A DNA stretch of 64,000 nucleotides, taken from Phyllosticta citribraziliensis (taxonomy: Eukaryota). The DNA lies in assembly GCF_038025025.1 (NCBI RefSeq), contig NW_027117349.1, forward strand, positions 62,001-126,000, read 5' to 3'. Position numbers and translations under genes: made by a program. Shown piece by piece: positions 21,105 through 64,000 of this stretch. The number at the start of each line of letters is the position of its first letter. Within the stretch, counting starts at the first letter, position 1. The notes below the pieces were generated by a model, which searched no databases, was not told the origin of the DNA, and worked only from the letters and a program-made list of their open reading frames with translations.

Positions 21105-26074
<4,970 letters not shown>

Positions 26075-26750
26075 GTCGCGGCGACGAGGTATCCAAGGAG
26101 GAGCAACAGTTGTGTGTATAACGTCTACGGTAGAGGAAGATCCCCCAAGCCAGCCGGGGTTGGGTGTCGGTTAAGGCAGGGCTCGCGAAGATCCGACGGG
26201 TGGATCGGCGGGATGGGGAGCGAAGAGGTCGGAAGTGTCGTGGTCGGCGGCGTCTGCCTGCTGAGCTGATCGGAGGGCGATGCAGCCAGGCAGCCTGCTA
26301 GCGGTTGCTAGCCTCGAGATCAATCGACGCGCACCATGCAAGAGCCGGTGGTCGCGGCGCGGCGGGCGGCGGAGAGGTGCAGAGAGGGCGACGGCGGAGG
26401 AGAGGCGGAGCGGACGGGGTCGTGGCGTGGCCGAGGTGCGTCGGGAGCGAGAGGGAGAGAGGGAGGGAGGGGGGGAGAGAGAGAGGTGGTGGTGGTGAGG
26501 GACGGACGAGGTGGCAGCGGTGGTGAGGCTACTGCAAGCAAGGCGCGCAAAGGTGTGTGCAAGAAGGCGGGCGAGCCCCGAGTCGCGCGGGCGGCGGGCA
26601 GGGCAGGGCAGGGCAGGGCAGGACAGGGCAGGGCGGGCCAAACGGCGGAATTTGGCTGTGGCTGGCGACGGCAGCACAGACGAGGACGACGACGACGACG
26701 CGGTCGGGCGATGGGTAGGAACAAGTGGTCGGTAGGATAAGAGAATAGAG

Positions 26751-32182: not shown

Positions 32183-32318
32183 CACAGTGGATGTCGAAAA
32201 GAAAGAGATCCCATGGGTCTGGCTGCAAATATGAACGACTGCTCTCTAAGCGCGACTGCGGTAGCGAATTCATGCTCCTCAGCAGGAAAATGATCGAGTG
32301 GATTCGCCATCCATGGTA
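32183..32318 (-). mobile_element. Copy A of CACAGTG-ended short repeat element (putative non-autonomous DNA transposon/MITE)
   Basis: Begins CACAGTGGATGTCGAAAAGAAA. Subrepeat cores at 32208/32241/32274 (33-bp period). Degenerate opposite end TTCGCCATCCATGGTA at 32303-32318. Confidence 0.7.
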
Positions 32319-32499
32319 GAGTGTTGTCCGAGACACGCGCTTTCCTCGTCGACCATGTTTCTGTCTACCTAGTCAGTATTGCAAACTTTTCGCCTTGCAA
32401 TTCAACCAGACCAGACTGACCCAGAGCTATAAAGAGAGATCTCTCATCGCATACAACGTCCACCAAATTTAATCCAGTACGCACACGTTACAAAGAAAA

Positions 32500-33690
32500 A
32501 TGCAAGCACAACCAGCCGACTTGTCCGATGATGAGCTCGGTCGCCTCCTTTCACTCGACACCAAAACACCACCGCCATCACTGTCACGCTCCCCACTCAT
32601 GCCACAGCCGCCAACCTCCCCAGTCCGGCTGATTGGATATGGCGCCTGCGGTGCTATCTTCGCGCGCGACGACGCTACCAACGTCTTCAAACTAGCCAAA
32701 ACGCGCAACTACCAGCTGTGGAATGACTACGTGCAGCATACGTGCGTGTGGGAAGCCATACACGCTTTCGGGCTATACCACGAGACGGCTGTTCCCAGGC
32801 CGGGAGCGTTCGTGGCGGCGGAAGACGTGGAGGGCGGAGAAGGGGAGGGAAGAGCAAGACAATGGTGGAGTCGACATGGAGACCTCGCCGCCGCTGTAGC
32901 CGCAGGAAACAACGTCAACATGCCCACGGCAGTCCTGTCATCAGAGAAGATCATCCCGCTCCCACTCCCCCTGCGCAACGCGCTGATCCAGCGCTTCTGC
33001 CACCCGGACAACCAAGCCGCCGCCAGAGCTAGCCCCGGCAACGCAGACTGCCTCGTGCGCATATACTTGGGCAGCTACAGCAGAAGGACACGGGATGGCA
33101 GTGGTGGTGGGAGTGGTGCCTGGACCAACCGATTCTTCAGTCTTCGCAACTTCAAGCTGTACCTGGACCAGCTTCGCGAGCTGCGCGTGGACACGCATCG
33201 GTTGGCGCGCTATATGGCCGGTGCACTGGCGGCGATGCACTGGGGCGCGCGCGTCGACGCGAGAGATGTCGAGTTCGTCGTGGGCTCGCCCCCGTCCTCG
33301 CCCCCCTCTCCTCCCCGTTCTTCCTGGATCCCGCTGTCGTCCGCCCTCCTCAAAACCATGGCTCCCAATACCTCCACCTTCGATCTAGTTTACCCCCGAC
33401 AGCCGGACACGCCGCTACGCTTCTGGCTGCTCGACTTCAACCAGTGTGGCGACATGAGCTTCGATGAGGCCGGCGTGAGGAGGGCCGTCGACGCGTTTTG
33501 GATGAATGATCCGTACTACCCAAGACCGCCGCGGCGCGATGGGGTCGATGACTTTGAGGGCGCGCTGTGGGACACTTTTGTGGCGAGATTTTTGGAGATA
33601 TCGGAGATGATACTTGCGGGCGAGGAGCCAGGGGTGAGAAATTTGCCGGCGATGTTTGTGGATGCATTGGTGGAGAGGGCGAGGCGTTGA
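32500..33690 (+). CDS. DUF3669-family protein (atypical kinase-like motifs), intronless
   Basis: 'LWNDY..H', 'CLVRIYLG', 'FSLRNFKLYLDQL', 'MAGALAAMHWGARVDARDVEFVVG', 'WLLDFNQC', 'AFWMNDPYYPRP' match the fungal DUF3669 family. Upstream TATAAA at about 32428. Confidence 0.85.
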   Translation: MQAQPADLSDDELGRLLSLDTKTPPPSLSRSPLMPQPPTSPVRLIGYGACGAIFARDDATNVFKLAKTRNYQLWNDYVQHTCVWEAIHAFGLYHETAVPRPGAFVAAEDVEGGEGEGRARQWWSRHGDLAAAVAAGNNVNMPTAVLSSEKIIPLPLPLRNALIQRFCHPDNQAAARASPGNADCLVRIYLGSYSRRTRDGSGGGSGAWTNRFFSLRNFKLYLDQLRELRVDTHRLARYMAGALAAMHWGARVDARDVEFVVGSPPSSPPSPPRSSWIPLSSALLKTMAPNTSTFDLVYPRQPDTPLRFWLLDFNQCGDMSFDEAGVRRAVDAFWMNDPYYPRPPRRDGVDDFEGALWDTFVARFLEISEMILAGEEPGVRNLPAMFVDALVERARR

Positions 33691-33837
33691 GAGGAAGCCA
33701 CCGTTGAAGGAGTATTCATTCGCTGCTATACCTACGCTTAAGGAGCATTCATGTACTACTATAGTTGCGCTTAGGAAGTGGTCGTCCATTACCGCAGCCT
33801 GGCCATCGGAGTGCCATTTCTTTCGATGCCCAGTGCG
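33683..33837 (+). mobile_element. Copy B of CACAGTG-ended short repeat element
   Basis: Subrepeat cores at 33709/33742/33775/33808 (33-bp period). Ends ATTTCTTTCGATGCCCAGTGCG. Weak left-end remnant GGCGTTGAGAGGAAGCCAC overlaps the DUF3669 stop. Confidence 0.7.
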
Positions 33838-42239: not shown

Positions 42240-42305
42240 TACGATGACATCCAGGGAGCATTCATTCACTACTGCAGATGAAGCTAAGGAGCTGTCGGAC
42301 CCACA
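42240..42305 (+). mobile_element. Degenerate fragment (copy C) of the CACAGTG-ended element
   Basis: ACATCCAGGGAGCATTCATTCACTACTGCAG..GCTAAGGAGC matches the first subrepeat of copy E (ACATCTAGGGAGCATTCATTCACTGCTACAG). The termini are eroded. Confidence 0.55.
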
Positions 42306-42453: not shown

Positions 42454-42613
42454 TATTGCACTTCTGACTGCGTCTGCCGTGGTCGCACTTTCATCCAAGT
42501 CAACACATTTGTTGATCTGGATCACAGCTCGAATATTGCGCTTCTGGCTGAGTCTGCCATGGTCGCACTTCAATCCAAATCAACAACTCTGTTGATCTAT
42601 ATCACAGCTCGAC
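42454..42613. repeat. Two-copy 80-bp tandem duplication
   Basis: 42454-42533 and 42534-42613 align without large gaps (TATTGC.CTTCTG.CTG.GTCTGCC.TGGTCGCACTT..ATCCAA.TCAACA...TGTTGATCT..ATCACAGCTCGA). Confidence 0.9.
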
Positions 42614-42852: not shown

Positions 42853-43701
42853 ATGGTGCTTCCCTTCCCATACCGTTTGATTACGGCCTGGATCAACAAC
42901 CCAAGCCCCAATCCACTCGACGGTCCAACTTTGGAAGTGGTGGAGGCGCCCTGGACCTGCCAGAGTAGGCCCGACATGGGCACGAGTCTATCCAAGTTCT
43001 GGATCGGGCTGGGGGGATGTTTATCACTCGACATGGCTGCCGATGCATGGCAGAATTCCGGTTTTTCTCCCCGGCTTCTTCACTGTGGCAGCAAAGACCA
43101 CTTGGACAAGTGTGTGGTTGAGTGGTTTGACGCCCGCGCCGCTCACGAGCAGCAGCTCGAGTATTTCGAGACCGTGCTACAATATATCGAGCACAATATC
43201 CTGAACGTGAGGGGAATCGATTATGCGGCTTCCGAGGAGTATATTGCGTACCATCTCTCTAGCCTCCAGGATCTCAACAAAGGATATGGGGGCATCCGCG
43301 ACCAAGAGATCCGGGGAACATACCTGGTCCTGAGCAGCGCCGCCCGGGGTTTTGAGCTTCTTTCCGGTCCCGAAGAACGCATGAGCATCCTCAAGCAGCT
43401 CATGCACTCGTTTGAGGATCTTTTGGTGGTCGAAACTGAAGAGGAGACGACTGGGGTCAGGATCGTCGATCGCGTCAACGCCCTCGTCCGCGAGTATGAG
43501 CGCGTCCTGGACTGGGCCCGGGAATGCGTCACTGCCGGCATCAACGCCCTCCCCCTCAGCGACGAGCGCTTCCTGGACTGGGTCCGAGCAAGCGGCACTC
43601 CTACCACCTCCACCACTACCACTACCACTACTACCACCACTACCACCACCACCACTTCCGAGAACAGCAGCAGCAACAACCACAACAACAACAACAGCTG
43701 A
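42853..43701 (+). CDS. Hypothetical (probably lineage-specific) protein with polyThr/Asn tail
   Basis: 282-aa ORF with coding-like composition. A canonical intron (GTATGT 42781, GCTAAC, CAG 42832) just upstream of the ATG indicates transcription. No family recognised. Confidence 0.55.
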   Translation: MVLPFPYRLITAWINNPSPNPLDGPTLEVVEAPWTCQSRPDMGTSLSKFWIGLGGCLSLDMAADAWQNSGFSPRLLHCGSKDHLDKCVVEWFDARAAHEQQLEYFETVLQYIEHNILNVRGIDYAASEEYIAYHLSSLQDLNKGYGGIRDQEIRGTYLVLSSAARGFELLSGPEERMSILKQLMHSFEDLLVVETEEETTGVRIVDRVNALVREYERVLDWARECVTAGINALPLSDERFLDWVRASGTPTTSTTTTTTTTTTTTTTTSENSSSNNHNNNNS

Positions 43702-45688
43702 AATGGTTGACCAGGAAAGGGACCTTACTGTTCCAGCCCACCAAGGCCAACGACATCGACAAGATACGCGGGTCAAACACATCATGTGGATGGACTGAGT
43801 CCAGTCGCCTCCACCACTCTCTGCATTTCAACATCGGCTACTTTTCCTCCCCATTCCACCCGAGGACCGCAAAATCATCCATCCTCCGAGGCCCGAAACC
43901 CTGGAAGCTCTCCCAGCTCACCGGAGATTCAGGCATGGACCTCATCTCACATCACTCCTGCTTCCTTCTTCACAGCAGCACAATGTGTTTGTTTTCATCT
44001 TTGGCTTTAGTGTACAGGATTGGCATGACATGTGTTGCATTTGTGTTTTATGCCAGGCGCATTTGGATTGGGAAATCAAACGGAAGATACCCCATCAAGA
44101 CTTTGCATTTTTGGAGAGAATCGAAATGGAATGTTCATGAATAGATTATTTTCCACCCTCTTCTTTCTGGCAATGACGTGCTACGGTGATGTTCCCATAT
44201 GGGATCAAGTGTGAGGAAGTATGCTGCAGACTTTGGGTAAGCCTGAGAGGAAGACAGCTAGAAAGGGGTTCAAGGGTACTTCAATTCGAGGTAATTCCTT
44301 CGTACATTTATCAGTTGTCTGCGGCCTGCCTTGATACGCAGCGTTACCCTCGACCCGGATCAGAGAATGATTATTTTCAGTTCCACGAGACCACTGCTTG
44401 ATGAGAGGATGATGGATCCTTTGTGACTTTATTATGGTACTGAAGGGAGAGTCCTTCTAATGCGGTTGTGTGCGAATGTGTCCAGAGATAAGAAAAGATT
44501 GCAACTTATGGTTCGGCCTTGTTTGTGTGTATGTGTGTCTAGGCTGTGGTAGAAGAGATGAGTAAGGTGGTGTGACAAAGAAGCTGAGCTGCCAATTCAA
44601 GAGTTGAATGCTTCTCGCGCGTCCATCAGCCCAGTGCTCCGGAACCGGTACTGTTGCAACAAACAACACCCTATTAGGTTTCTGGTGTTGTCTGTACACA
44701 GCACCTTAATGCTGTCTTCACACAAAAGTAACACAGCGCGCCAAATAATGTATATCCTCTTCTGAATTCCAACGATATATCTGTAGGTGTCCCTGCTTCT
44801 ACTCACCATTTCCAACACACTCATAAAACAGAAAAGACATGCAACAAGCCCTGCCACCGCTCCCTTCCCGCTTTAATCGTCCTTCCATTCTCTCACTTAC
44901 CCCTGCCTCCACCTCCGCCCCTGAAAAATTGCCGAAGTGCCCCCTTATTTTCCCCGTGCACCACACCCCACCAAAAAAAGGACAAAACGTACGGCAGCCG
45001 GGATTCGCTGCTGGTCACCCACGCAACTACTAATCGGCCGCAACGTGGCTTATCTATGGAAGAGCGGACGGGGTTCCGAGTTTTCCACGTGCTATGGTCG
45101 TACGTGAAGGAGAAGCTGGGAACCAAAGATTATGTAGTAAATTGTATTGGGATCGGGAGGAGGGAGCAGGGGAGATTTTGGGTTCTTGCTGTGTCTGGGT
45201 TTGAGGGAATTTAGATTGTATGGTGGTCATCGTGGCGTTGTCGGCATGTGGTGTTGAAAGAAAAGGGTCACGGGAGGAAGTCGAGCGCGACACATGGCTA
45301 GAACATCGCACTATGTGGAAGCCGCGGATCCAGGCGTGCCACCTTGCAGATGGGCAAGGTACTGTTAGTGACGACTGCTTTTTACTCAATCGAGGCCGAG
45401 ACTACCACATGCAATGCTTGAAGCACGAGTACAGCGAACCGCCAGCCGACTTCGATATTGCTACTGGAACTGGTGGGCCTGTTCGCGTTAAACAGAGATA
45501 GAGTGCTCCTCGGTAGGCTTATCGATGAAATTTCCTATTATTCTTACTTTGGTTCCTTCAAACAATTTGTTCGATGACTTTCTCCCCATACTTTTAGTCT
45601 TGATCCATGACGGCACGAAAACGCGACGAAGGTCTTTCCCACTGGCCAAGAACTTACACGGAGAACACTTCCACAACACCTTTCCTCC

Positions 45689-58891: not shown

Positions 58892-60399
58892 ATGACGAAC
58901 CTGGTGCACCCTGCACCTTGACCTGTTGATCTTCTTCCTCCATCTCTCCATTTTCCATCTCGGGCGTGCGGTTCTTACCCTTGACTACTTGTCTCTAATG
59001 AGAATCTATTTGATCCATTCCCTTCTGCAGCGCACAAGTTGGCTAGGAACCGAACGCTCCAGCAAGTCTCGTCCCTTGACGTGCGCTTCGTCCGTCGGCA
59101 ACCATTGCGCGCGTGCCAATTCGCCGGCAGCTTCACACCGTTACGCCTTTAGTTTTTAGAGATGATGATACCATGGAGCCGTTTACTTTTTTGCCTCTCA
59201 AGCGTCTCGATTCCTCTTTGTTGAGAAGTAGGAAGAACGCGAGCACGGGGGAGAGACGGAAGGACGAAGGGAAAACGGAACCGGTGAAGAGGACAAAAGA
59301 AGACACGATTCGATCCTGGTCAAGTTTCAACGGCATACAGGAACATACTTCAAACAACAACAATCCCTCAAAAAAGAATGAAAGATACCCAATTGCGACA
59401 ATCCAAAGCGGTCGATCGAATCAAATGATCGGGAGACATGGATGCTGGAAGAAAGAGGAAATTCAATCAAAACAAAGTCAGTCCAGTTAGCGAGATTTTT
59501 CTTTGGGTTCCGAGCAGAAGCAGCAGCAGGTAGCAGTTTTTGAAAATGGCGATGCGAAGAGTTTTCCTCCTTTTTTCCATTTTCTTCCTCTCTCCGCGTC
59601 TGTCTTGGGAGCATTCGTACACGTGTCTGTCTGTCTGTTTGCTTGCTTGCTTGTTTGCTTGTTGGTTTTTCAATGCAAGAGAGAACATTTTCTTCATTGT
59701 TAACTGTCTCCTTTGGCACAGTTCCTCTGCGTCGGCCTCTTTCGTCCTGCCCCGGTCTGCCACTTTCCTGGCCGGGACTTTCTTATCTTTCCTTGCGATC
59801 GCGCTCTAATCACCTTTTATCGTCGTTGTCCGTCTTTTGTTTCTCTGGGGAGGTGGAGTTTGGAGGCGCCTTTTTCTTCTTGTTTCTTTCCTCCCCTTCC
59901 TCTTCCTCCCTTCCCTCCCAACCCGGCCTTCTTGGAGCCAACGGAGCGCGTCATCAATGATTGGCGCGGCGGCGACGTCCTTGGCCGAGCCATGTCGGGT
60001 CTGGTGGGTGCGGGTGGACGATCAAGTGCAATGCATAGAGCGGGGCCAGATTGGACGGATGGGCGGACGGACGCAGACGGCAGAGGGGGGGTCCGCTCCG
60101 GTTGTGGGCAGAGTACTGATTGAGCGATGGATGAGATCACGGCCGCGGAACGAACGAACGACCTGATAGAGCGGGAGGGTCTGGGGCTACGGAGGCAGGC
60201 CGAGGGAGTGAGGGAAGGAAGGAAGGCTTTGCGCCGCCGTTGCGATGCACTGGCGAACGGGTTTCCATTGGGTTGGTGGGATGGGACGGGATGGAATCGG
60301 ATGGGATGCTTGTATTTGCACTTGCTAGGGCGCGCAATATGACTTGTCAAGACCACTTGCTTTGGCCGTCTTCTAATGTCTTGCTGACAGATACACAGG

Positions 60400-60648
60400 C
60401 ACAGTGGGTGTCGAAAGAAAAGCGACAGACCTGGCAACGTGAGTACAGCTACGGAGCATTCATCTACAACTGCAGTCGCGCTAATGGAGCTTTCATTCAC
60501 TGGTGCAGCCACACTTTGGGAGCTTTCATCTGCTGTCACAGTCGCGCTTGCTGGTGAGGAACATTCAATTACAATGGCAGGTTCGCTTAGGGAGCATTCG
60601 TTCACTGCTGCGTCTTAATCTAGAGTCTCGTTTCGTTGCGTCACTTCA
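60400..60648 (+). mobile_element. Copy D of CACAGTG-ended short repeat element (longest copy, 5 full subrepeats)
   Basis: Starts CACAGTGGGTGTCGAAAGAAAAAGCGACAGACC. Cores at 60453/60486/60519/60558/60591. Eroded right end CTAGAGTCTCGTTTCGTTGCGTCACTT. Confidence 0.75.
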
Positions 60649-62266
60649 GACGAAACACAACGCCTTCATCGCTCAGCCCAGCGTCCCACCATAGGCTCAA
60701 AACCTGGCGCACGTCCTCAAGGCTAGAATCGACACCGATGCGCTCGTCGTCGGGCACGGAGAAGTCGAGGCTGCTACGCAGTAACTGCTCACACAGTGGG
60801 CAGCCTGCCTGCTGCTGCCGCGCATGCCATTCGGCGAACAACGACGCCTGGAGCGGCACGGCTGTGGTCTGGCGCCCCAGGAGGTAGTCTCTCACAAAGT
60901 TGAAGTGATGGCGGGCGAACCAGCCGGCGCCAGGAGCGTCATCTGCGTCGTTGTCGTCGTCGTCGCTGCTGTACGTGTCCAGCAAGATGCGGCCGACGCA
61001 ATCGTGGTCCCAACCTTCGCTTGTCACGCCTACTGAGTCGATGAGGCGGCGCATGTGCAGCGAGAGGAGCGGAGGCTTCTTTGATGATGACGAGGAGGAG
61101 GTATTGGCAGCAGTGGACGAGAAGGTGTCTCGCAGCTGCGCCATCAGCTTCTCCCACGTCTGATCAGACTGTGGAAACACACGTTCCCCATCGTCATCTT
61201 CCCACCACTCACCCGCGTACTCGGTGAACGCGTCGCCGCTACAATCCTGGTACGGGGAAAGCAGGACGTAGTCGAGGCTGAGGTCGCGCAGCGTGCCGGC
61301 CACGCGCCCCACAAAGGCGAGCAGTGAGTCCGTCGACGTGATGAGCCGCGAAAGGCGTACTTTGGAGAGGTTTGGCGAGAGGGCAAACCCTTGGAAAGGC
61401 TTGAGCGAGTCTCGTCGGTGGAAGTCGTTGGCGCTGCACGAGTCGATTCCGCAGTCCAGATGCAGCGACTCGAGCGCGTTTTCGCGGTGGCTGCACAGGC
61501 AAGCCAGACTGCGGTTGTCGCAGTGCTCGTCATATTTTTCGCCGGGCTGGACGTCGCGCAGGTCGAGATGCTTGAGCATGCTGAAAAAGGATGCCGGTGG
61601 TGGCAGAATCTTGATGCTGCTGCTTTTGCCGTGCGCATCTCCTTCTGTCCTTCGTCTCCGCTGCTCCTCTTGGTACCGCCAGATGTTGTTGAAGCTTCGT
61701 CCCGACGCGTGGGCCCAGCGGACTGATTGTATCGTGCGGAACCAGCGAGCAGGGAAGCAGTGCATCCGCTGGGTCAAAGCGAGCAGGATGATGTCCATGG
61801 AGGGATCCCCCCACCCCATCGATCCCTCCCTCAACACGGACGATACGCGTTCGAGGTTCCGCAGCTCTCTAATGGCGCGGAAGAGCGCTCGCAGGGTGGG
61901 CAATATGGGATTGCTGGCTTGGAAGCCGTCCGGGTCGTCGAATGTCGCTAGGTAAAGATTCAAAAGGATGCAGTTTCGTTTGTCCTTGCAATCCGGAGCG
62001 CTGGCGCGAGTGAAGCGGCCCACTCCTGTCACCGCCACTAGCTCTTTGATGCAGAGAGCAAGCGCCGGGTTGGCGGCAATGCCAGACAGAGCTCGAATGC
62101 TGTCGGGGTCGAGTACGTCCACCTTGACTTCTCTGAAGAGGTGCCGCGACGTTGTGAGCCCAAATGACTGACTCACCAATCGCATGGACTGCAGCGTTGG
62201 GACGTCTGTTTGTCCGAGAATCAAGTCTTTGAGCTCCTCTGGGAGCTGCGGAAAGAGTGAAGACAT
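60641..62266 (-). CDS. F-box domain protein with LRR-like C-terminal region, intronless
   Basis: N-terminal 'LFPQLPEELKDLILGQTDVPTLQSMRLVSQSF..LFREVKV' is an F-box signature. 'LKHLDLRDV', 'LESLHLD', 'LSKVRLS', 'LRDLSLDYV' are LRR-like strands. First ATG at 62266. Confidence 0.78.
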   Translation of the reverse strand: MSSLFPQLPEELKDLILGQTDVPTLQSMRLVSQSFGLTTSRHLFREVKVDVLDPDSIRALSGIAANPALALCIKELVAVTGVGRFTRASAPDCKDKRNCILLNLYLATFDDPDGFQASNPILPTLRALFRAIRELRNLERVSSVLREGSMGWGDPSMDIILLALTQRMHCFPARWFRTIQSVRWAHASGRSFNNIWRYQEEQRRRRTEGDAHGKSSSIKILPPPASFFSMLKHLDLRDVQPGEKYDEHCDNRSLACLCSHRENALESLHLDCGIDSCSANDFHRRDSLKPFQGFALSPNLSKVRLSRLITSTDSLLAFVGRVAGTLRDLSLDYVLLSPYQDCSGDAFTEYAGEWWEDDDGERVFPQSDQTWEKLMAQLRDTFSSTAANTSSSSSSKKPPLLSLHMRRLIDSVGVTSEGWDHDCVGRILLDTYSSDDDDNDADDAPGAGWFARHHFNFVRDYLLGRQTTAVPLQASLFAEWHARQQQAGCPLCEQLLRSSLDFSVPDDERIGVDSSLEDVRQVLSLWWDAGLSDEGVVFRLK

Positions 62267-62552
62267 GTTGTTGTTGCTGCTACGGTCAACTGTTGTCGTC
62301 GGCAAGGAAGTGGCGTTGGCGGTAATGGAGAAGGCGCGAGGTAGAAGCGCGCTGCGTTAACTTAGATGCGACGCGTCGCCTCGTGACCGTTTGCGGCCAA
62401 GTTTTCCATCTATCTTAGCGATGGACCTGTCATGATTGATGCTGTACAATGAGCGGTGCGACGTTCTCATATGCTGTCTGGACTTTGTGGTTGTTCGCTT
62501 TTTATGCATGTGCGCGGCGCGTTTGCCGCTTTTGGTTCCACCACGGAGGTAG

Positions 62553-62737
62553 CACAGTGGGGTTCGAAAGAAATGAGACTCCCTAGGTTTACATGCAGCA
62601 GTGAATGCATGCTCCCTAAGCGCGACTGCAGTAGTAGATGATTGCTCTCTAAGTGTAGCTGTAGCAGTGAATGAATGCTCCCTAGATGTGCTCACATTGC
62701 TGGGAGGTCTGTCGCATTTCTTTCGGCACCCACGGTG
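62553..62737 (-). mobile_element. Copy E: best-preserved 185-bp element with both terminal inverted repeats
   Basis: Left CACAGTGGGGTTCGAAAGAAATGAGAC. The right end reads CACCGTGGGTGCCGAAAGAAATGCGAC on the - strand. Cores at 62578/62611/62644/62677 (33-bp period). Confidence 0.82.
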
Positions 62738-63496
62738 GGATTACGCGCCGCGCATGACTGCCATGCTGGTTGGACGGCTGTCAATTCCTGTCTATCGAGT
62801 AACGGGCTCCTACGCTCCTACCCCTGCAGAAATAGTGCCCTGTTCCATTTGGCGACGATGGAGATGGATCATCATGACCATTGGACTCCACTGACGATTC
62901 GTGTGGCGCATGCCCAGAACATGAAGCTTCATCGTGCCTGCCTCTGTGGAAGATTGAAGTGGATTCCATTGGCTTAGGAAGGCGACAGGTCTCTCGCGAG
63001 TTGTGTGCAAGGAGAATGAGGGGACGGCCAGTGTCATGACTGGAGAAAAAAGGACACAACAAGTCTCCTGAAACACACGATGCGAAAGAAAAAAGAAGAA
63101 GTCAAGAACACCGACCCGTCTGTTCCCATCTGTTGATTGCTCTTATCTATCAAATGTTCATGTCAAATCCATCGTATTGTCACCTACTGGATGCGGGTTC
63201 GAGTGTTGATCGAAGCGAAGATAGAACATCAGAAAGCAAGGCCGGATTGAAACTTGCGTACCATGTGCACCCAATGGAGTCTTTCTTAACGTGAAGATGA
63301 TTTCGGTGATTGAATGGTGGCCTAATGAATCGTCGAATCATTGACAACTTGAAGTGATTCCCTGGTCGTGAGGAGTGTTGTTGAAGCTCTGAAGGTTGCG
63401 TGTGCTTCGAGCATCGGTTGTGGTGAGTCGAATGAAGGTCGCAGGTCAAAAGTTTAGTATTTATAAATTGAAAAAGTCATAACTCATTCAATAACA

Positions 63497-63902: not shown

Positions 63903-64000
63903 CACAGTGGGCGTCGAAAAAATGAGATCTCCCGGCACAGCGAATGTGCTTAGGGAGCATCCATTTACTACCACAGCTGCGGTCAGGGAGCAGTCGTTCA
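63903..64000 (+). mobile_element. Copy F of CACAGTG-ended element (runs off window end)
   Basis: CACAGTGGGCGTCGAAAAAATGAGATCTCCC followed by GCTTAGGGAGCATCCATTTACTACCACAGCTGC and the next unit GGTCAGGGAGCAGTCGTTCA. Confidence 0.75.

Follow-up and report, generated by a model that had tools for sequence, protein, structure and literature searches.

The 64-kb window (the whole stretch of 64,000 nucleotides that was analysed) contains six related copies of a short, non-coding inverted-repeat element, beginning at 32183, about 33690, 42247, 60400, 62553 and 63903. The best explanation as a whole, which we consider probable, is that they belong to an old and decayed family of non-autonomous MITEs mobilised in trans, with the EnSpm-like side favoured as their affiliation. 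Such an element would carry at each end a terminal inverted repeat (TIR) of about 27 bp, CACAGTGGGYGTCGAAAGAAATGMGAC, and between these ends 33-bp tandem units in varying number, with no coding capacity of its own. Its movement would depend on a DDE transposase encoded at another place, which would recognise the TIRs and cut at the CAC..GTG tips; the copies would be cut out and pasted in trans, inserting into gene-flanking DNA. In this genome the family is a fossil, the copies in the window being old and immobile; their age follows from a mutual identity of about 70%, from their decayed ends, and from the presence of at least one copy at the same locus in relatives.

A genuine MITE family with sharply defined ends is evident from the matches to its TIR pattern, the six places returned by BLAST and the exact match boundaries in contigs of a relative, run X13. 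Common to the copies are a terminal inverted repeat, CACAGTGGGYGTCGAAAGAAATG, and internal units of 33 bp. The TIR pattern CACAGTGGGYGTCGAAAGAAAT, with up to three mismatches allowed, matched the window five times (60400, 62553 and 63903 on the plus strand, 33816 and 62716 on the minus strand), against a mean of 0.00 in 100 shuffles, and the TIR consensus proposed in a first-pass annotation of this DNA was thus borne out. There is a sixth end at 32183, which has one inserted nucleotide; it lies outside the five pattern matches and was recognised by eye and by BLAST. When the two longest copies were used as queries in a sensitive BLASTN search of the window, the hits fell exactly on the places at which the first-pass annotation had counted at least six related copies, with no similarity beyond them. 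The places stand as claimed, with qualifications: both ends are present in three copies only (32183-32319, 60400 to about 60649, and 62553-62737), the match at 42247-42296 is a fragment, and the copy at 63903 is truncated where the window ends. Complete copies span 137-250 bp and are non-coding, and pairwise identity among copies is 68-78%, about 70%. The number of 33-bp units differs from copy to copy and the ends stay conserved; the tandem units were also recovered by repeat search (families D2, D5 and D6). We found CACAGTGG as an exact match seven times in the window, where 2.72 occurrences are expected. Four of the seven are family ends (32183, 60400, 62553 and 63903), as had been noted earlier, and the other three (17769, 54473 and 60792) are unrelated to the family. 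CAC occupies TIR positions 1-3 in five of the eight ends and CACAGTG is exact at four; the heptamer variants among the window ends are CACAGTG, CACCGTG and CGCACTG. None of the 41 window ORFs of at least 150 aa that were scanned has a transposase domain, these being ordinary fungal genes, which agrees with the earlier statement that the window holds no transposase. No Rfam family matches any of the copies.

The focal element, copy E (62553-62737, minus strand relative to the A-end-to-B-end orientation of copy D), is a complete MITE of 185 bp, recognised from the sequence, the TIR pattern and BLASTN, and is the only complete copy with both ends well preserved. Its left TIR, the B-end (62553-62579, plus strand), reads CACAGTGGGGTTCGAAAGAAATGAGAC, and its right TIR, the A-end (62711-62737), reads CACCGTGGGTGCCGAAAGAAATGCGAC on the minus strand; the two are identical at 22 of 27 positions. 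Inverted-repeat search and alignment show that its A-end resembles the left end of copy D in sequence, with 30 of 33 positions in agreement. Folded as a single DNA strand, copy E is predicted to form a terminal stem (z = -2.83 against 200 shuffles). The internal array at 62594-62684 (plus strand), found by repeat search, consists of 2.8 copies of the 33-bp unit (TRF period 33, 72% matches) and confirms the unit length reported before. We also examined whether these units might be reiterated TIR-adjacent sequence, that is, extra transposase-binding sites, and rejected this, as the local alignment score of 9 was equalled in 259 of 2000 shuffles.

The other copies are preserved to different degrees. 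Copy A (32183-32319, minus strand; 137 bp) has the left TIR CACAGTGGATGTCGAAAAGAAAG and a decayed right TIR, which reads CTACCATGGATGGCGAA on the minus strand. Copy B (33696-33837, plus strand) retains internal units and the right TIR, CGCACTGGGCATCGAAAGAAATG on the minus strand, and its left end has decayed. Copy C (42247-42296, plus strand), detected by repeat search and BLASTN, is an internal fragment of 50 nt that comprises one and a half units and has no TIRs. Just downstream of it, at 42454-42613, are two tandem 80-bp units that are 84% identical. Copy D (60400 to 60649, the end being approximate; plus strand), of about 250 bp, has an intact left TIR, a degenerate right TIR and more 33-bp units. 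Copy F (63903-64000, plus strand) begins with the left TIR CACAGTGGGCGTCGAAAAAATG, followed by units, and is interrupted by the window end.

To see the family outside the window, we compared the window with contigs of the public sequencing runs X1, X2, X6 and X13. Run X1 yielded short contigs identical to the window, while X13, X2 and X6 represent relatives that have 11-21% of 31-mers in common with it. Matching in X13 contigs begins at 60398 (9 contigs), 60399 (7) or 60400 (12), 28 contigs in total, and at the focal element it begins at 62553 (12 contigs) and ends at 62737 (6 contigs), so that the match boundaries fall exactly at CACAGTG and CACNGTG. The X13 flanks beyond these tips are mutually unrelated, with a consensus agreement of 0.44-0.47. 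Sharp, fixed ends within unrelated flanks indicate a dispersed mobile element with its tips exactly at CAC and GTG, and together with the TIRs and the non-coding nature of the copies they uphold the earlier description of a non-autonomous inverted-repeat family. At position 62702 the family was covered by 29 contigs in X13, 9 in X1, 5 in X2 and 2 in X6. The heptamer is not invariant within the family, because an X13 subfamily ends with the complement of CACAGCGGGCGAGG, which gives the variant CACAGCG in a relative. Elsewhere, a scan with the TIR pattern found five loci in metagenome contigs, five in prokaryote genome contigs and none in viral contigs; these 10 loci were rejected as extra copies and ascribed to chance, as only 21-40 nt around the motif match and internal units are present in 0/10.

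The same contigs give information on age. One X2 contig spans 62541-63123, that is, copy E together with its right flank, and copy E is therefore present at the same locus in a relative; it, at least, is older than the split from the relatives. Copy D is probably older than the split as well: an X13 contig runs across it, skipping internal parts, and extends into the gene next to it. Insertions that predate the split are consistent with the roughly 70% identity among the copies. Among the joints listed in the run contigs, none removes a copy precisely, as an empty site would. A separate joint in an X13 contig (59915 to 60015) replaces a 99-bp stretch of the window, 59916-60014, by 2 letters, and by eye the ends of this stretch show no inverted repeat or duplication.

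Target-site duplications (TSDs) were sought in the flanks of the three two-ended copies, with flank lengths of 2-10 bases and each boundary shiftable by up to two bases, which amounts to 225 boundary-and-length combinations for each of the three copies. At the observed tips of these old, about 70% identical copies, no duplication of any length from 2 to 10 was found in A, D or E (0/3), in agreement with the first-pass annotation, and decay of TSDs is expected at this level of identity. The 5-bp flanks are GGTAG/GGATT for copy E (left and right, respectively, as had been read before), AACTT/AGTGT for copy A and ACAGG/ACGAA for copy D, and in none of these three old copies do they match. Nor is there an exact match of 2 or 3 bp at the tips of the same old copies, the closest being AGG/ACG at copy D (2/3). 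With shifted boundaries, copy E gave a near-match of GGTA/GGGA (3/4, both boundaries shifted), and copy D gave GATACACA/GAAACACA, a match at 7/8 positions that appears only when both boundaries are moved outward by two bases. This copy D match is probably due to chance; we doubt it because it was found among 225 combinations for each of three copies and in an ACACA-rich stretch. If real, it would fit a superfamily with 8-bp TSDs and not the CMCT clade.

The dinucleotides immediately outside the eight window ends are TT, CT, CC, GG, GT, AG, CC and CT, and TA is found at 0/8. TTAA is the TSD of piggyBac/Kolobok elements and TWA that of PIF/Harbinger elements; TTAA, TAA or TTA is present at 0/8 ends, which speaks against these superfamilies. 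The X13 flank consensus at the tips is GC, AC and CC, and not TA. At the 60400 end, a G stands just outside CAC in 16 of the 28 X13 contigs, of which 9 have GG, and the X13 consensus beyond 62737 begins with CC (62738-62739). This suggests a GG..CC extension that would make the TIR 2 bp longer, or a target preference there. In the window, GG is found outside CAC at one of the eight ends.

Among known superfamilies, the one we favour most, tentatively and from sequence features, is the EnSpm/CACTA-Mirage-Chapaev side of the CMCT clade. This placement is suggested by the CAC..GTG tips (three bases) together with flanks that lack TA, TTAA and TWA, by which other superfamilies were excluded. Elements of the CMCT clade (EnSpm/Mirage/Chapaev/Transib) are described as having CA..TG termini and TSDs of 2-5 bp, and fungal EnSpm elements as having CAC..GTG tips and 3-bp TSDs (PMC12730594). 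The family resembles EnSpm/CACTA elements in its CAC..GTG tips, its non-specific flanks and its internally repeated sequence (PMC12730594). It differs from them in that its tip is CACAG and not CACTA, in that the expected TSD of 2-5 bp is not visible at its copies, and in that no Transposase_21-type partner is found among the window ORFs scanned. There is also a difference in hosts, since the fungal EnSpm examples described are from rusts and Agaricomycotina, whereas the host of this family is a Dothideomycete; according to a survey, CMC/EnSpm elements in fungi occur mainly outside Ascomycota (PMC5751038). Zymoseptoria tritici (Mycosphaerella graminicola), another Dothideomycete, is reported to have CACTA elements, and its MITE families have TSDs of 2 bp, 5-6 bp or 8-9 bp (PMC4522978). 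Compared by description and not by sequence, the Z. tritici MITEs are similar to the family in being short Dothideomycete MITEs in gene-rich DNA; those copies that are shorter than about 200 bp are described as lacking a clear RIP bias, and some of the families have TSDs other than TA (PMC4522978).

Of the readings that compete with an EnSpm-like one, the one that survives best, though unlikely, is that the family consists of MITEs of a superfamily with TSDs of 7-9 bp (Zisupton/KDZ-, Merlin-, hAT- or P-like) whose TIR starts two bases further outward, as GG CAC.... The copy D match of 7/8 two bases outside both tips would suit it, as would the X13 contigs, where GG (9/28) or a single G (7/28) precedes CAC and CC follows the other end. 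KDZ elements are described with CA..TG termini and 7-bp TSDs (PMC12730594), and one M. graminicola MITE family has TSDs of 8-9 bp (PMC4522978). However, at the offsets used for copy D, copies A and E give only 1-2 matches out of 8, GG lies outside CAC at a single window end, and the 8-mer of copy D was picked from the full search space in the ACACA-rich stretch mentioned above. As regards hAT elements in particular, their third terminal base is stated to be always G (PMC1131882), whereas that of the family is C.

Below it we place an impala/mimp-like Tc1/mariner MITE with two extra outer TIR bases (CA followed by CAGTGGG...), which is improbable. A TIR of about 27 bp, small size and a gene-flanking position are typical of the mimp MITEs and impala of Fusarium, and the family resembles these in TIR length, in element size, in its gene-flanking position and in having CAGTGGG close to its tip. 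This stretch starts at TIR position 3 and is identical to the opening seven bases of the mimp motif CAGTGGG.GCAA[TA]AA (PMC6131394), and Tc1/mariner is given as by far the commonest DNA transposon of fungi (PMC5751038). Against this stand the two extra outer bases, CA, which as CA..TG are inverted and conserved and hence belong to the element, and the absence of a TA duplication, with TA at none of the eight window ends and not in the X13 flank consensus. The sequence after GGG is also different: with one N and up to two mismatches, the mimp motif matched 0/8 family ends, and its variant with NN matched only the end at 63903, at two mismatches, in a count at chance level. The earlier judgement that the family is not mimp/impala-like is supported. 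The published description of Paracoccidioides Tc1/mariner elements contains no TIR with CAGTG or CACAG.

The first-pass annotation had linked the family to Transib and RAG, and this part of it is not supported. It is very doubtful that the family represents the non-autonomous remains of a Transib-like transposase lineage (RAG1-core-type) in Dothideomycetes, or of another CAC-ended lineage that is as yet undescribed. The specific form of this idea, a Transib-derived MITE with a RAG1-core-like transposase, 5-bp duplications and a CACAGTG homologous to the RSS heptamer, is highly improbable. What speaks for it is the family's CAC at positions 1-3 in five of eight ends, with its first seven bases identical to the RSS heptamer at four, an A-rich tract inside the TIR, and a Transib transposase reported from one fungus, soybean rust (PMC1131882). 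The Transib TIR is described, however, as 38 bp long and composed of a CACAATG heptamer, a spacer of 23 bp (or 12 bp) and an A-rich nonamer, with GC-rich TSDs of 5 bp (Kapitonov and Jurka, 2005; PMC1131882). In the family, the TIR is about 27 bp and has no nonamer separated from the heptamer by 12 or 23 bp: the A-rich tract falls at TIR positions 15-21, which leaves a spacer of 7 bp, and positions 20-28 (AATGAGACT, AAAGCGACA, AATGCGACA) and 31-35 are not A-rich. Further, a 5-bp TSD is seen at 0/3 complete, old copies, no RAG1-like gene is present among the scanned window ORFs, and the heptamer itself varies in the family (CACCGTG, CGCACTG, CACAGCG). In the Pfam-based survey of fungi, as far as its available text goes, Transib is given as the one superfamily missing from fungi, with 0 transposases counted (Muszewska et al., 2017; PMC5751038), and CAC..GTG ends are described as common to the whole CMCT clade (PMC12730594). 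The likeness to the V(D)J heptamer is a shared clade trait or chance, and does not count as evidence of a RAG-like enzyme. If true, the Transib-like reading would put a RAG-related clade into Ascomycota, where transposase surveys found none. Of similarly slight probability is that the copies are no transposon at all and instead a dispersed regulatory or structural repeat, or satellite remnants, mimicking a MITE: all of them adjoin gene ends, tandem 33-bp units make up the bulk of each and the three complete copies show no TSD, but inverted terminal repeats have identical sharp boundaries in many unrelated flanks of a relative, the ends are conserved where unit number varies, and Rfam has no match.

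The window is gene-dense fungal DNA, which encodes a STE3 pheromone receptor, Med15, a PAK-type kinase, fimbrin-like CH domains, a GPI-ethanolamine-phosphate transferase and others, and every copy of the family lies within a short intergenic spacer adjoining gene ends. Copy A sits inside a divergent promoter region, and the decayed left (inner) end of copy B adjoins the end of a DUF3669 ORF, 32500-33690, at its final codons and stop. Copy D overlaps the stop codon of an F-box-like ORF, 60641-62305 on the minus strand, and copy E lies about 250 bp upstream of that ORF. Copies A and B (32183-33837) are in inverted orientation around one ORF of 396 aa, with their better-preserved TIRs outward; the ORF at 32500-33690 has a DUF3669 domain and a kinase-like start, GxGxxG...K, with the glycine loop read from the sequence. 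Copies D and E (60400-62737) are likewise in inverted orientation, around the F-box-like orphan ORF. A search of 5.8 billion proteins gave three matches to the latter, one of them the window's own protein, and the named relatives are from Phyllosticta citrichinensis (88% identity) and P. citriasiana (44%), with no others; the host is accordingly a Phyllosticta-like member of the Dothideomycetes. We considered the A/B and D/E pairs as composite or autonomous elements and rejected this, as the enclosed DUF3669 and F-box-like proteins are not transposases; the outer flanks of the pairs show no duplication beyond GG/GG. Other features were observed in the window. A dispersed 5S rRNA gene lies at 44986-45105 on the minus strand (Rfam RF00001, 83 bits) and accounts for the depth spike at 44668-45334 in all four runs. 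The Med15-like ORF (21105-26096, minus strand) contains long CAG/CAA repeats of the polyglutamine type at 23924-25415, with a matching repeat at 43596-43703.

We found no description of the family TIR or of a relevant Phyllosticta MITE in the published literature, Repbase and Dfam being outside this comparison, and among the matches listed for CACAGTGGG and six 12-mers of the TIR in the literature there were only unrelated occurrences. The family is thus an unclassified, CAC-ended fungal MITE family, uncatalogued as far as the literature goes, with Repbase and Dfam outside the comparison. It also calls for caution: termini of the form CA(C)..(G)TG are found throughout the CMCT clade, and a CACAGTG tip alone is therefore no sign of kinship with RAG or Transib. 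The importance of the family would rise only if a RAG1-like partner appeared. For the genus, whose mobile elements have hardly been described, the finding adds one inactive MITE family. Several gene-flanking spacers can moreover be recognised as derived from transposons, which aids their annotation and the comparison of promoters and 3′ regions among Phyllosticta species.
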